A DNA stretch of 34,011 bases from Deltaproteobacteria bacterium (GTDB taxonomy: Bacteria > Myxococcota_A > Polyangia > Haliangiales > Haliangiaceae): the NCBI GenBank assembly GCA_013813765.1, contig JACCRC010000349.1, positions 1 through 34,011 on the forward strand, given 5' to 3'. This document shows positions 28,437 to 34,011 of the stretch, in pieces (positions within the stretch are counted from its first letter, which is position 1; every line of letters starts with the position of its first letter). The notes under the pieces were generated by a model that saw nothing but the letters and a program-made list of their open reading frames with translations, was not told the DNA's origin and ran no database searches. A program made the position numbers and the translations under genes.

Positions 28437-29078
28437 GTGACACCTCCGTTCATGGTCCTGACTCTCTTCGCCAGGCTGTTCCGGCGGCGCCCGGATGCGG
28501 CGCTCGCCGATGCGCAGGCGGGTGACCGCGATGCGATCGGAAGGTTCTACGACGCGCACGTCGATGGCCTCTACGCGTTCGTGTTCTACCGCGTCGGTCG
28601 CGATGGATCGCTCGCCGAGGACGTCGTCCAGGAGACGTTCACGATCGCGCTCTCTCGTAAGGCCGAGTACGACCCCGAGCGCGGCTCGGTCGGTTCGTGG
28701 CTCACCGTGCTGTCGCGCAACGTCATCCGCGATCACATGCGCGAGCACAAGCGCAGCGATGAGCTGCAGACCGCGTGGGAGCGCATCGACGCCACGCTCG
28801 CGCAGACGTTCGCCGCGATGGCGGAGCGTCCGCTTCCCGGCGAGGTCCTCGAACGCGCGGAGACCCGTGACCTCGTGCACATGGCGGTCGCGAACCTGCC
28901 GGAGCAGTACCGCACCGTCCTCACCCGCAAGTACGTGGACGGCGAGAGCCTCGAGACGCTGTCCAGCGAGCTCGGTATCTCGGTCGACGCCACCAAGTCT
29001 CTCCTCGCCCGGGCTCGACGCGCGTTCCGCGACACGTTCGCTGCGCTGTCGGCCAACTTCTCGGAGGTTGCATCGTGA
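28437..29078 (+). CDS. ECF-family RNA polymerase sigma-70 factor
   Basis: Region 2 (FYDAHVDGLYAFVFYRVGRDGSLAEDVVQETFTIAL; VGSWLTVLSRNVIRDHMREHKR) and region 4 (PEQYRTVLTRKYVDGESLETLSSELGISVDATKSLLARARRAFRD). The stop TGA overlaps the downstream GTG start (GTGA). Confidence 0.85.
   Translation: MTPPFMVLTLFARLFRRRPDAALADAQAGDRDAIGRFYDAHVDGLYAFVFYRVGRDGSLAEDVVQETFTIALSRKAEYDPERGSVGSWLTVLSRNVIRDHMREHKRSDELQTAWERIDATLAQTFAAMAERPLPGEVLERAETRDLVHMAVANLPEQYRTVLTRKYVDGESLETLSSELGISVDATKSLLARARRAFRDTFAALSANFSEVAS
29063..29067 (+). promoter_or_regulatory. Shine-Dalgarno GGAGG 7 nt upstream of the GTG start of the FecR-VIT-vWA gene, inside the 3' end of the sigma gene
   Basis: Read directly: tcGGAGGttgcatcGTGA. 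Confidence 0.4.
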
Positions 29079-32000: not shown

Positions 32001-34011
32001 GCAACGAGCGTGAGTCCTCGCGCTCGCAGCGCTATTGGTCTGGACCGATGGTCGCGCAGCGCTTCGCCTCCCCGACCGACATGGCGTTCGACGACATGAC
32101 CGCGTTCGTGCCCGCGCTGCTCGCCGATTCGAGCGACACCTGGCGCGCGCGTCTGACCTCGCTCGCCGGCGCGGCGAAGGCGCACCCGATCGATGACGCT
32201 GCGAAGACGCTGCTGCGCCGCGCTCGCGCCGCGCTGCCGACGGGCGTGTATCGCTGGAACGACCTCGAGATCGCAGTCGACTCGTCGCGCAAGGTGGGCT
32301 GGCGCCGCACCACGGACGCGGATCTCGCGGAGACCGCATCGTTCGACGGCACCACCTTCACGCGCCGCTACTCCGAGCTCGGCCTCGACGTGTCGCGCAC
32401 ACTCACTGCTGACGCCGTCGCGTTCTCGCTCGCGTACCTGCCGCTGTGGATCGCGGAGCCCGAGCACTACGCGCGCTGGTTCGACGTCAAGGCGAGCGGC
32501 CGGATCGTGTCGCTGTCCTCCGCCGGCAAGGTCGTTTTCTCGCTCGAGCTCGACGCGAAGGAACACCTGTCGGTGATCCGCGACGGCGCGGGCGCCGAGC
32601 TGATCCGGATCACGTGGGGCGATGCGGGCCCGGTCTCGGCGAAGGTCGCCGGTCAGGACGTCTCCGTCGGCTTCACCGGTCAAGCGATCGGCGATGCGGT
32701 CGCGTGGGCGCACGGCACGACGAACCCCGGCGTCTCCGTCGAGCTGCCGGCGCACCTCCCCGCCTACTGGGAGGCGAAGATCAAGGCTGAGACTGCGGGC
32801 AGCGCCGCGTGGCGCAACGCGCAGCGCCAGGCCATGGTCAGCTATGCGGCCGTCAACAACCGCAGCGGCCTGAACACCGCGTACGAGGCGCTGCGGAACA
32901 GCGGTGGGGTCGAGCTCGGCGACCTCGTGCTGGCGAGCGCCGGCATCGCGACGAGCACCACCGATGCGCAGCTCGCCACCGCGCTCGCGACGCTCTCCGA
33001 TACGCCGGTGGCGAAGTACCTGATCGCGGGCCGCACCTACGGCAAGTCGCCGCGCCCGGAGCGCCTGGCGCCGCAGACCGGATCGATGGGGCTCGTCGCC
33101 GCGGTGTGGCAGCTGCGCCATGTCACGGCGCTGTTCGCCGCGAGCCAGAGCAAGGCGGCGGTCGACGCGCTGGTCGCGATGGGACCGCGCGCGCTCCAGC
33201 TGCGCATCATCGGTGCGGCCGCGATCTCGAGCCGCCACGACGTCAAGCCCGAGGATATCGGTCGCGCGTGGGATGCGGTCGCGGTCGGCGAGTACAAGAA
33301 CGTGGCGCGCGCGCAGGCGGCCATCGGCATGGCGAATCGCAACGCGATCGACGCTGCTGTGGAGCGCGTGTCGATGCTGATCGCCGACCTCGATCTCCGC
33401 GCACGGCCGCCGCAGCTCGATCAGCTCGTGTACCGCGTGCAGCAGTCGCGACGCGGCCCGGCGGGCTGGCAGCTGATCTGGACCGCGTGGCGCGACAAGG
33501 TGCTCGCCGGCAACAGCTACGAGCACGTGATGTCGCTGATCTCGATCGCGAACCAGCAGCGCGCCGACCTGCCGTCGATCCTCAACCGCGCCGTCGAGCT
33601 GGCTGGTGGTGACGTCGACAGGAAGCTCACCGTCGCTCGCATCGCGGTGCAGTACGGAATGCCCGCCTTCGCGCAGAACGTGATCGCGCCGCTGCTGACG
33701 GCGAACGGCACCCGCGAGCTCTATCAGCTCGCCGCCGCCCTCGAGCTGCAGCAGGGGCGCACCGCCGACGCGCTCGGTCACCTCGAGGCCGCGCAGGCCG
33801 CCTCTGCCGACGAGCCGGTCGCGATCGGCACGGTGCGTGCGGAGCTCGCGCAGATCATCCAGGTGGCGCGCGAGCTCGCGGTGCAATCGAGCGGTCCGGC
33901 GCGCGATGCCACGGTGAAGCGTGCGATGGCGTGGGGCGCGAAGTGGCGGGCGATCGACCCGGGTAACCCCGACATCGACACCCAGCTCGGCGAGCTCCAG
34001 CTCGCGGTCGG
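29075..34011 (+). CDS. Giant membrane protein (more than 1645 aa; partial, with the C-terminus beyond the window). Order of parts: short N-terminal cytoplasmic region, TM helix, FecR-like anti-sigma sensor domain, VIT domain, vWA domain (MIDAS DDVSAS), then a long Gly-rich and helical C-terminal extension.
   Basis: Hand translation from the GTG at 29075 is open to the window end with clean GC3 codon usage. TM helix: LVAVGVGLAATAAAALIVT. FecR-like: TWISEPGAKVTVLGKRHVKVEGAALLDVVPGKGTFIVETQRGRIEVLGTRFLVAA...AVVRGSVKLASPDGAVTLHAGEQ. VIT: VYRFAIPPDAALQRLAMYVDGKLTESAVVERQRARRIYEELVYRRIDPALLEWAGTGRLSLRVYPLPARQDKRLMLAYTQSL. vWA: WVILDDVSASRGAMERRAQADLIDAFMHELDEEDKVAVLAFDV...GATDFSVALEAANKLL...MLVYIGDGVITSG. 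It is missing from the ORF track because it has no in-window stop. The opposing 1717-aa track ORF is an antisense artefact. Confidence 0.8.
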   Translation, partial: MTTDNTTKDVLEQNVETLIESGGEAPKLNDLAKARIRAKLVAAHGADVPARKRRPLVAVGVGLAATAAAALIVTRVVGGGPGGSTGGNGEVINKSNALADGSTWISEPGAKVTVLGKRHVKVEGAALLDVVPGKGTFIVETQRGRIEVLGTRFLVAATADRTTTAVVRGSVKLASPDGAVTLHAGEQGVAEPGRPPSRGPAPRLSHLVSWAAQARHREEKDVQPIHRGTLFARDPGVRSHPPWGPEYPLPLKKLGVDVVVENQVARVALDQTFHNDADQTLEGVYRFAIPPDAALQRLAMYVDGKLTESAVVERQRARRIYEELVYRRIDPALLEWAGTGRLSLRVYPLPARQDKRLMLAYTQSLPKLYSDWTLSVPLPEIDQPVGEVAFDVTIKGCANCEVTSTSHKVSVQSKGEDALVTYSNKSETIGDSLVLHVRDKRQEVSLAKHDDYLMVRTPAELPRDAKPYRPRTWVILDDVSASRGAMERRAQADLIDAFMHELDEEDKVAVLAFDVTARQKLAMTRVLDVDRRKLRASLKTEGNVGATDFSVALEAANKLLAGVAPDDAMLVYIGDGVITSGPKNLDALRAQLVGKVHFVGVGVGDGPDTQTLETLAAATGGYSTTIDLADDVAWRAFDLIAALHTARVTGVEARLLDDKGAHVPSTLYMKSPQLADGEELELVAKLAGGGTPAAVELTGTLNGTKWTKTIALPDKASDGGYLPRTWAQRHIAARMLAKHEAIAVTPCTPGPKASCPTEAEVREKRDEAIRQEVVGLGKKYFLLSRHTSLLVLENDAMYQQYGVAKGAGDTWAPYVLPATIPVITTAPLIKPSNVADDAELTRNPIPVFYNYGYGNGYFAAGLDDGEWGGLTIDGRFGTIGGGSGYGVGGTRGTRGDLGLATIPLQTQQAHAGPTVPDTGAVASVVTESTLEANKERDSDRWAGGEEKAKRQSISSDEIVGGFGRRGGGIGSTGWLGNERESSRSQRYWSGPMVAQRFASPTDMAFDDMTAFVPALLADSSDTWRARLTSLAGAAKAHPIDDAAKTLLRRARAALPTGVYRWNDLEIAVDSSRKVGWRRTTDADLAETASFDGTTFTRRYSELGLDVSRTLTADAVAFSLAYLPLWIAEPEHYARWFDVKASGRIVSLSSAGKVVFSLELDAKEHLSVIRDGAGAELIRITWGDAGPVSAKVAGQDVSVGFTGQAIGDAVAWAHGTTNPGVSVELPAHLPAYWEAKIKAETAGSAAWRNAQRQAMVSYAAVNNRSGLNTAYEALRNSGGVELGDLVLASAGIATSTTDAQLATALATLSDTPVAKYLIAGRTYGKSPRPERLAPQTGSMGLVAAVWQLRHVTALFAASQSKAAVDALVAMGPRALQLRIIGAAAISSRHDVKPEDIGRAWDAVAVGEYKNVARAQAAIGMANRNAIDAAVERVSMLIADLDLRARPPQLDQLVYRVQQSRRGPAGWQLIWTAWRDKVLAGNSYEHVMSLISIANQQRADLPSILNRAVELAGGDVDRKLTVARIAVQYGMPAFAQNVIAPLLTANGTRELYQLAAALELQQGRTADALGHLEAAQAASADEPVAIGTVRAELAQIIQVARELAVQSSGPARDATVKRAMAWGAKWRAIDPGNPDIDTQLGELQLAV

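Follow-up and report, generated by a model that had tools for sequence, protein, structure and literature searches.

Why does an extracytoplasmic function (ECF) sigma gene stand directly in front of the gene for a giant membrane protein, and does the major vault protein (MVP) homolog some kilobases away have any part in the arrangement? Both questions are raised by contig JACCRC010000349.1 of a deltaproteobacterial genome assembly (GCA_013813765.1, Haliangiaceae), the whole of which, 34,011 nt with 69% G+C, is referred to here as the window; the giant gene, which encodes a FecR-type domain followed by VIT and vWA domains, runs off its end. ECF sigma factors constitute a major bacterial signalling system. 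The comparison of this locus with its relatives makes it likely, in our judgement, that the pair is a conserved myxobacterial ECF sigma factor together with a giant membrane-anchored envelope sensor that regulates it, encoded in an operon of the ECF267 type.

Relatives were sought in one genome per species among 185,579 species genomes, which yielded 113 relatives, and 75 loci were kept. All of these come from uncultured Kofleriaceae, Haliangiales or Myxococcota genomes, with one bin labelled Acidobacteriota. Counts that concern the sigma gene refer to the 70 loci in which it lies directly upstream of the giant gene, and those for the kinase together with the sigma gene to 45 loci; the main upstream motif was counted in 65 distinct upstream regions and a second conserved element in 63.

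A translationally coupled two-gene unit

The first gene of the pair occupies 28437-29078 of the forward strand as annotated. Its product contains sigma-70 regions 2 and 4 only (Pfam Sigma70_r2, 1e-13, 51.3 bits; Sigma70_r4_2, 9e-12, 44.9 bits) within 208-213 aa, as is characteristic of ECF (group 4) factors, and it scores 78.7 bits against the sigma70-ECF family TIGR02937, for which the cutoff is 42.9. The annotated start, GTG 28437, gives a protein of 213 aa. The likelier start is ATG 28452, which gives 208 aa (28452-29078, forward strand), because the conserved N-terminus MVLTLFARLFR begins there, in keeping with the pattern M-[IV]-x-x-L-F-A-R-L-F-R that the orthologs share, and because GTG 28437 falls inside the conserved upstream motif described below. 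In each of the 70 loci, the gene immediately before the giant gene encodes an ortholog with 63-92% identity, and the acidic motif of region 2.2, LAEDVVQETF, is identical among the ortholog variants listed. Judged against phosphorylation-dependent ECF factors, the retention of this motif presumably fits ordinary RNA polymerase binding without phosphorylation, which argues that the sigma factor does not depend on phosphorylation for binding the core polymerase.

At the junction between the two genes (29063-29078, forward strand), a GGAGG at 29063-29067 is followed by a 7-nt spacer and by the start codon of the giant gene, GTG 29075-29077, which overlaps the sigma stop codon, TGA 29076-29078, as GTGA. 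The earlier note on this DNA had described exactly this overlap, with the GGAGG inside the 3' end of the sigma gene, and it can be read directly in the sequence. The 4-nt overlap is kept in 68 of the 70 loci, as ATGA in 51 and as GTGA in 17, and in the remaining two the start codon shares one base with the stop codon (TGATG). Such constancy argues for stoichiometric co-production of the sigma factor and the giant protein, as is normal for a sigma factor and the regulator that belongs to it.

The second gene (29075-34011, forward strand) is partial: its open reading frame remains open to the contig end and supplies 1645 aa of what is predicted to be a giant single-pass FecR-type sigma regulator. 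Full-length orthologs have 1700-1850 aa, typically ~1760-1780, and through them the sequence beyond the window, which the earlier note had wanted to see, could be followed for the absent ~115-135 aa to an end made of TPRs. The first 55 residues (29075-29239) form a predicted cytoplasmic segment and, by position, the candidate anti-sigma or sigma-binding segment; L11, N14, V15, L18, P26, R37 and L40 are invariant in a family alignment of 33 sequences. A transmembrane helix follows at aa 56-74 (29240-29296), which with a Kyte-Doolittle value of 2.27 is the only segment above 1.6 in the 1645 aa and which, being preceded by ARKRRP, predicts an N-in topology. A FecR-like twin-arginine signal was also considered at this place and rejected, since the window protein has a pair of arginines (RKRRP) but the family consensus reads RSP, so that the pair is not conserved.

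Beyond the membrane helix lies the FecR-type periplasmic domain (aa ~100-200, 29372-29674). Its Pfam match (PF04773, aa 115-172) reaches 33.5 bits against a cutoff of 24, and 38-54 bits in divergent relatives, and the domain also matches a putative anti-sigma factor of known structure (PDB 4m0n). The earlier note would have abandoned its FecR-like region had profile detection failed, and the region passes. When the family profile of aa 85-250 is aligned with FecR of E. coli K-12 (NC_000913.3), the family's rievlGTrflv pairs with qltalGTeftv, and the invariant Gly150-Thr151 of the giant protein (29522-29527) aligns, at the sequence level, with G181-T182 of FecR. This dipeptide is the published site of non-enzymatic self-cleavage in FecR, and its equivalent in FoxR is G191-T192 (PMC12036975; PMC9249621).

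The VIT-vWA module comes next (aa ~244-815, 29804-31519), with VIT at aa 251-361 (76.8 bits, 1.8e-21) and vWA at aa 474-640 (VWA_3, aa 474-623, 42.3 bits, 1.1e-10; both Pfam). The metal ion-dependent adhesion site (MIDAS) of the vWA domain is complete, consisting of D478-x-S480-x-S482 (30506-30520), T547 and D575, and invariant in the 33-sequence alignment. The NCBIfam family TIGR03788, a sortase-target VIT-vWA protein, matches aa 379-795, and the VIT region is weakly similar to ITIH4 (E 0.055) and to the VIT region of PARP4 (E 0.64). The order given in the earlier note, a short cytoplasmic segment, one transmembrane helix, FecR, VIT and vWA with an intact MIDAS, is thus present in full.

That note had summarised the rest of the protein as about 1000 aa of Gly-rich and helical sequence. 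This description stands for a variable Gly-rich linker (aa ~850-1000, 31622-32074), which contains 21.9% Gly and in 115 sequences shows a column conservation of 0.16-0.46 with 20-55% gaps, and for a helical TPR-like alpha-solenoid that runs from aa 1233 to the end of the window (32771-34011) and continues for ~130 aa more in orthologs. It misses the beta domain that lies between the two (aa 1036-1232, 32180-32770), a fold-level match to the LolA superfamily in which an open beta-barrel with a helical lid resembles LolA, LolB and RseB; the superfamily also includes MucB. The solenoid is all-helical in an AlphaFold model (pLDDT 91), and its Foldseek matches are the TPR superhelices of OGT, IFIT5, subunits of the APC, LbcA and LapB. 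Positions 1620-1740 of the family profile match consensus-TPR structures, and the C-termini of full-length orthologs carry Pfam TPRs. Taken together, the conserved overlap of the genes, the FecR match above the Pfam threshold and the invariant Gly-Thr dipeptide support the sigma/anti-sigma type of pairing that the earlier note had proposed, and do so much more strongly than a single locus could.

The architecture recurs far beyond the window. A word-indexed search recovered over 110 full-length proteins that share this Pfam architecture at 54-90% identity, the named members of which belong to the Kofleriaceae, Polyangiales or Myxococcales. An exhaustive HMMER search of 1.84 billion cluster representatives with the C-terminal 645 aa gave 132 matches, and nearly all of the full-length ones have 1700-1900 aa and match at the same relative position. 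Because this search matched almost only such proteins, the combination of LolA-like domain and solenoid is, by the measure of sequence searches, specific to the giant-protein family, and the architecture as a whole is old and stable. Four divergent members with 22-33% identity in the C-terminal part keep FecR, VIT and vWA, three of them together with Pfam-detectable TPRs, and a fifth, weaker and partial match, P0371, keeps FecR, VIT and TPR and gives no vWA match. P0371 (2214 aa) also has a weak match to STN (secretin/TonB N-terminal) at aa 1152-1194, which hints at architectural variants whose sensor contacts TonB-dependent machinery.

Upstream of the sigma gene, a motif of the form gCGACACCT-N13-TGACAC (28414-28447, forward strand) contains GACAC twice, at 28418-28422 and 28439-28443, 21 bp apart. 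It was found by anchoring the upstream regions on the conserved start and applying a regular expression and a position weight matrix (PWM); a plain MAFFT alignment was too noisy. GACA[CT]-N15-xGACA is present at exactly that spacing in 63 of the 65 orthologous upstream regions, with the consensus gCGACACCT-cgg-n-c-n-cg-nn-CG-n-TGACAC. The PWM score at the sigma gene is 31.5, and the next best value on either strand of the 34 kb is 11.0, at 11622-11655 and away from the MVP gene; throughout the 2.05 Mb of fetched loci, the motif occurs once per sigma locus, and elsewhere there are three weak matches with scores of 17.5-19.1. Its second half ends 8 nt before ATG 28452, with no Shine-Dalgarno sequence between them. 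The simplest reading is that the motif is probably an autoregulated ECF promoter of the sigma operon from which a leaderless or very short-leader mRNA arises. Its TGACAC, which is TTGACA in many orthologs, was also considered as the -35 element of a sigma-70 promoter and rejected in the window, where the start codon follows 8 nt downstream.

A second conserved non-coding element, GACCAGTATCCCCCTGAAACCGTTGCC, lies at 28366-28392 in the intergenic region between the sigma gene and a divergent membrane-protein gene. Its core, GAAwCGTTGC, recurs in 35 of the 63 upstream regions, where it precedes the GACAC motif by 23-25, 35-38 or 46-49 nt, that is, in spacing classes that differ by steps of about one helical turn. 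Read as a sigma-54, sigma-70 or SigW-like promoter, the element (TGAAACCGTTGCC) offers no convincing spacing fit. A search of the window against Rfam gave zero matches.

How the sigma factor may be controlled

If the giant protein is the regulator of its sigma factor, the following course of events can be envisaged. The two proteins would be co-produced in fixed proportion through translational coupling, and the sigma factor would transcribe its own operon from GACAC-N16-GACAC, along with a further regulon. The cytoplasmic tail of ~55 aa would hold the sigma factor, or else prime it as FecR primes FecI, while the periplasmic part of ~1700 aa would serve as the sensor. By analogy with FecR and FoxR, and with the RseA/RseB pair, this part may cleave itself at Gly150-Thr151 and stay attached. 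A MIDAS typically binds an acidic side chain of its ligand through a metal ion, and LolA-like pockets bind acyl chains and, in RseB and MucB, gate the proteolysis of an anti-sigma factor. A ligand could be caught by the MIDAS, by the LolA-like pocket or by the TPR surface, with the Gly-rich linker acting as a flexible tether; conceivable ligands would be acidic proteins and polysaccharides as well as lipid or lipoprotein species, derived either from the envelope or from another cell nearby. Binding or loss of this ligand would loosen the cleaved complex and make the membrane stub accessible to site-1 and site-2 proteases, whereby the sigma factor would be freed or activated.

Two neighbouring genes may supply further inputs, the first of which encodes a Ser/Thr protein kinase with a C-terminal transmembrane anchor (12501-13622, reverse strand; Pkinase 2.9e-31). 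An ortholog of it (64-82% identity) is present in 45 distinct sigma loci, as a rule 1.1-1.7 kb away from the sigma gene; the kinase gene of the window is 14.8 kb away. The transmembrane helix of the kinase spans aa 316-334 with ~40 residues beyond it, which indicates a membrane-anchored enzyme with almost no external domain.

The other gene (27220-28356, reverse strand) encodes a Pro-rich membrane-anchored protein of 378 aa with a TonB-like transmembrane signature, a homolog of which adjoins the sigma gene on the opposite strand in 50 of the 70 loci. S11 and H15 in its N-terminal transmembrane segment are invariant (the TonB-like S-x3-H) and are followed by a Pro-rich spacer and by a C-terminal domain with the invariant motif DPY..K..LD.TR.ER; no Pfam or PDB family was matched by the protein, either singly or as a profile of 13 sequences. 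The S-x3-H pattern and the spacer are what suggest a TonB-like protein, and it is possibly part of the sigma system. A TonB-dependent receptor together with ExbB, ExbD and TonB is found in the variable region between the MVP gene and the sigma operon in the closest relatives (264-4814 of L004, 1426-5866 of L160 and 2379-6805 of L161) and is absent from the window. The three receptors consist of CarboxypepD_reg and a barrel, with no STN family among the Pfam matches listed.

Several points weigh against the course of events envisaged here. No Pfam anti-sigma or FecR N-terminal family matches any of eight family N-termini at E values up to 10, and a tail of ~55 aa is shorter than the classical four-helix anti-sigma domain. 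Self-cleavage is suggested by two aligned residues. The upstream motif has one and the same pentamer in its two halves, which is unusual for -35 and -10 elements that are read by different sigma domains, and the motif could alternatively be the site of a repeat-binding transcription factor rather than a promoter. The ligand, the protease and the regulon lie beyond the reach of a 34-kb contig. The operon, moreover, is best filed as ECF267-type by its gene context, not by the sequence model of that group, and the authors who defined ECF267 left undecided which of the two, FecR-like protein or kinase, regulates the sigma factor, or whether both do (PMC7826278).

This last uncertainty leads to a different division of roles, in which the Ser/Thr kinase controls the sigma factor and the giant protein is a co-transcribed adhesion or scaffold protein of the envelope, itself a member of the regulon. 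The missing anti-sigma domain and the conservation of the kinase in 45 loci speak for it, as does the fact that VIT-vWA, LolA-like and TPR domains are typical of adhesion and scaffold proteins; ECF267 is, furthermore, one of the kinase-associated ECF groups, which are typically without anti-sigma factors (PMC7826278). We nevertheless consider kinase control unlikely. Against it stand the near-universal start/stop overlap, the conserved cytoplasmic tail and FecR domain with its Gly-Thr dipeptide, and a single-pass N-in topology of the kind typical of anti-sigma factors. The acidic motif of region 2.2 is, moreover, retained by the sigma factor, and in the window the kinase gene has come to lie far from the sigma gene while the giant gene is still joined to it. 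A further alternative is a pro-sigma variant in the manner of FecR, whereby a proteolytic N-terminal fragment would be needed to activate the sigma factor and not merely to release it. The FecR-type domain with its aligned Gly-Thr site would fit such activity, which FecR-type regulators can have (PMC9249621), but the cytoplasmic segment is without similarity to the N-terminal domain of FecR and the pair has no neighbouring gene in the window for a TonB-dependent transducer equipped with a signalling domain, which makes this variant rather improbable. Control of the sigma factor by a giant envelope sensor stays the reading we prefer.

The MVP homolog and a variable insertion site

An MVP homolog does lie near the sigma operon (15075-17732, annotated as 15075-17492 with 805 aa, reverse strand; MVP_shoulder 5.8e-26, Vault_3 1.7e-9). 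Its orthologs are labelled 'major vault protein' by the Joint Genome Institute (JGI) in many relatives, and bacterial MVP homologs have previously been recorded in Myxococcales (bioRxiv 10.1101/872010). A plus-strand open reading frame at 14628-17750 was discarded as the MVP gene after giving zero family matches; the real gene is on the minus strand. The distance of 11.6 kb from the pair given in the earlier note needs correction, the MVP start being 10.7-10.9 kb and the MVP stop 13.4 kb from the sigma gene.

From this proximity, that note had raised the possibility that the VIT-vWA giant is a bacterial counterpart of the vault component VPARP that works with MVP, with the sigma factor controlling the MVP locus. 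VIT and vWA are indeed the non-catalytic module of VPARP (PMC7916137), and the giant protein has the weak match to the PARP4 VIT region mentioned above. MVP and the sigma pair also share a contig in several relatives, and the MVP gene lies 1.5-3.8 kb from the sigma gene in L044, L058, L013, L084 and L148, a frequency above what random placement would lead one to expect. The TonB-like gene, MVP, the kinase gene and a glutathione S-transferase (GST) gene of L044 all point in one direction, divergent from the sigma gene, and MVP is separated from its two neighbours by 44 and 70 nt, so that co-regulation is conceivable there.

The wider comparison argues otherwise. MVP lies between kinase and sigma gene in three of the 45 loci that have both (L013, L044 and L058); in L004 it is 9.2 kb off, with other genes intervening (TonB, ExbB, ExbD and the TonB-dependent receptor). 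Conversely, 24 metagenomic MVP loci extend at least 4 kb upstream, and the sigma and giant genes are present in two of them (L084 and L148). Two shorter MVP loci (L080 and L081) show the same gene backbone, and MVPs that are 72-77% identical occur in unrelated contexts (L091, L093, L111, L129, L146 and L151). The spacing from MVP to the sigma gene extends to 24 kb on JBBRED010000025.1 (L161 versus L043) and to 43.5 kb on JADKKI010000072.1 (L160 versus L008), and the intervening genes are unrelated. In a neighbour-joining tree of 57 MVPs, the copies next to a kinase or sigma gene are all confined to one part, and no deeper clade is adjacent. This pattern is, as far as a gene tree can tell, that of one inherited arrangement followed by losses or moves, not of repeated recruitment, and the excess of adjacency over random placement would then reflect the common descent of a variable insertion site that lies between kinase and sigma gene.

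Promoter, compartment and domain content point the same way. Neither the surroundings of MVP in the window nor the sigma-less MVP loci contain a strong match to the sigma motif, the best in the latter being a single weak one with a score of 19.0 (L098), so that an ECF-type promoter upstream of the MVP locus, which the earlier note had counted on, is missing for the only motif identified. MVP has no transmembrane helix or signal peptide (maximum hydropathy 1.24, N-terminus MDERNTKRD) and is predicted to be cytoplasmic, while the predicted place of the VIT-vWA module, given the single N-in helix, is the periplasm. VPARP, for its part, binds MVP through a C-terminal INT domain of 162 aa and not through VIT or vWA (PMC7916137). 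The region of the giant protein in which such a domain was sought gave no PARP4 match, either with the family profile (E up to 1) or with the C-terminal 830 aa (E up to 10), even though full-length PARP4 was included in the PDB sequence set searched, of which only the VIT region was matched; the Pfam matches of the giant protein include neither PARP nor BRCT. The comparison with the MVP-interaction region of VPARP that the earlier note had suggested therefore ended with zero similarity, and the nearest named bacterial VIT-vWA relatives, those of NCBIfam, are sorted cell-surface proteins. Comparative genomics thus largely refutes a VPARP-like partnership, which we hold to be extremely unlikely: the linkage of MVP to the pair is not conserved, and a tempting connection between bacterial VIT-vWA proteins and bacterial vault-protein homologs is removed as unsupported. 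MVP instead looks like an accessory gene at a variable insertion spot in one sublineage, not a partner of the sigma system.

A narrower proposal concerns the sublineage in which MVP stands between the TonB-like gene and the kinase gene, as in L044. There MVP might come under the sigma system through the shared divergent control region and, as a separate matter, the giant protein might be a contact sensor of other cells or prey by way of its integrin-like MIDAS. We think this very unlikely, but if true, control of MVP by the sigma system would provide the first regulatory handle on a prokaryotic MVP.

The gene backbone into which MVP appears to have been inserted has a conserved order, namely a CarboxypepD_reg/PDZ protein, PanC, a gene of unknown function, sometimes a major facilitator superfamily (MFS) transporter, GST, the Ser/Thr kinase, the divergent membrane protein, the sigma factor and the giant protein. 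The AAA, TPR, LysM, HEAT and further AAA genes that separate MVP and sigma gene in the window are found within 10 kb upstream of no other giant-gene locus. Divergent from MVP, 17645-20429 (forward strand) encodes an AAA+ ATPase, which also carries N-terminal TPRs, a 158-aa protein and a 310-aa TPR protein. These three recur with MVP in the close relatives L160 and L161, the AAA gene also on a short metagenome contig (L112), and they could be an MVP-associated gene set. The adjoining stretch, 20454-26686, encodes a LysM protein, a HEAT-repeat protein, a second AAA ATPase (641 aa) and a MopE-like Cys-rich protein; at that position, these genes occur in no other fetched locus, and the stretch looks like a strain-specific insertion.

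Near the other end of the window, two large open reading frames on the reverse strand (2-3451 and 2893-5895) are rich in CarboxypepD_reg repeats, and each of them ends in a PDZ domain. Their open stretches overlap by ~560 nt, and the upstream start of the first is questionable; a protein of this CarboxypepD_reg/PDZ type is also part of the conserved backbone at other loci. In each of the three loci that were inspected in full, a DEAD/ResIII helicase gene with a DUF3516 match lies downstream of the giant gene (15952-20831 in L002, 15173-17305 in L003 and 18832-20967 in L004), in a region past the end of the window.

Comparison with known systems

The closest described relative of this operon is ECF267, introduced as a new group of 28 sequences, all from Proteobacteria, in which a putative FecR-like, TPR-containing anti-sigma factor is accompanied by a neighbouring Ser/Thr kinase (Casas-Pastor et al. 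2021; PMC7826278). The group was defined by comparative genomics alone and has no experimentally studied member, and its sigma factors are reported to lie far from the FecI clade (PMC7826278). The present loci share with it a sigma gene directly followed by a gene for a FecR-domain protein that ends in TPRs, a conserved Ser/Thr kinase nearby, an origin in myxobacteria, which are Proteobacteria in the old sense, and a context that is not of the FecI type. Beyond the main text of that description, they add the VIT-vWA and LolA-like parts, the Gly-Thr site, the promoter-like motif and the start/stop overlap. The window locus and its 70-odd orthologs thereby bring testable features to a group whose regulator its authors left open: the overlap argues that the FecR-like giant is the cognate partner, the motif is a promoter candidate that can be used to find the regulon, and the retention of the FecR self-cleavage dipeptide throughout the giant family is a further feature of this kind.

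With the FecI/FecR/FecA system of E. coli and the FoxI/FoxR/FoxA system of Pseudomonas, the operon has in common a single-pass regulator encoded after the sigma factor, a periplasmic FecR domain and the aligned Gly-Thr dipeptide, and the likeness to FecR and FoxR likely extends to a mechanism by proteolytic cascade. In contrast to FecR, the cytoplasmic part of the giant protein measures ~55 aa (~80 aa in FecR-type regulators) and gives no match to the FecR N-terminal domain, and in place of the C-terminus that contacts the transducer there are ~1550 aa of VIT-vWA, linker, LolA-like domain and TPR. Unlike the Fec and Fox systems, the window has no TonB-dependent transducer. As compared with Sigma-E/RseA/RseB and AlgU/MucA/MucB, in which the LolA-like fold belongs to a separate protein, the giant carries it in the same polypeptide and is without sequence similarity to RseA or RseB.

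What sets the predicted sensor apart is its unusually large and composite build, which combines an integrin-like adhesion module, a LolA-like fold and a TPR scaffold. Among VIT-vWA proteins, it differs by the fusion to a FecR-type regulator and in having no PARP, BRCT, INT or sorting signal; unlike that of VPARP, its VIT-vWA module is predicted not to share a compartment with MVP. A VIT domain ahead of a vWA domain whose MIDAS is complete is common to the vertebrate inter-alpha-trypsin inhibitor heavy chains (ITIH), to VPARP/PARP4 and to the bacterial sorted proteins of TIGR03788, TIGR04477 and TIGR04286. ITIH proteins act outside the cytoplasm, to which the NCBIfam family names also assign the bacterial sorted VIT-vWA proteins, and it is there, too, that the VIT-vWA module of the giant protein is predicted to lie.

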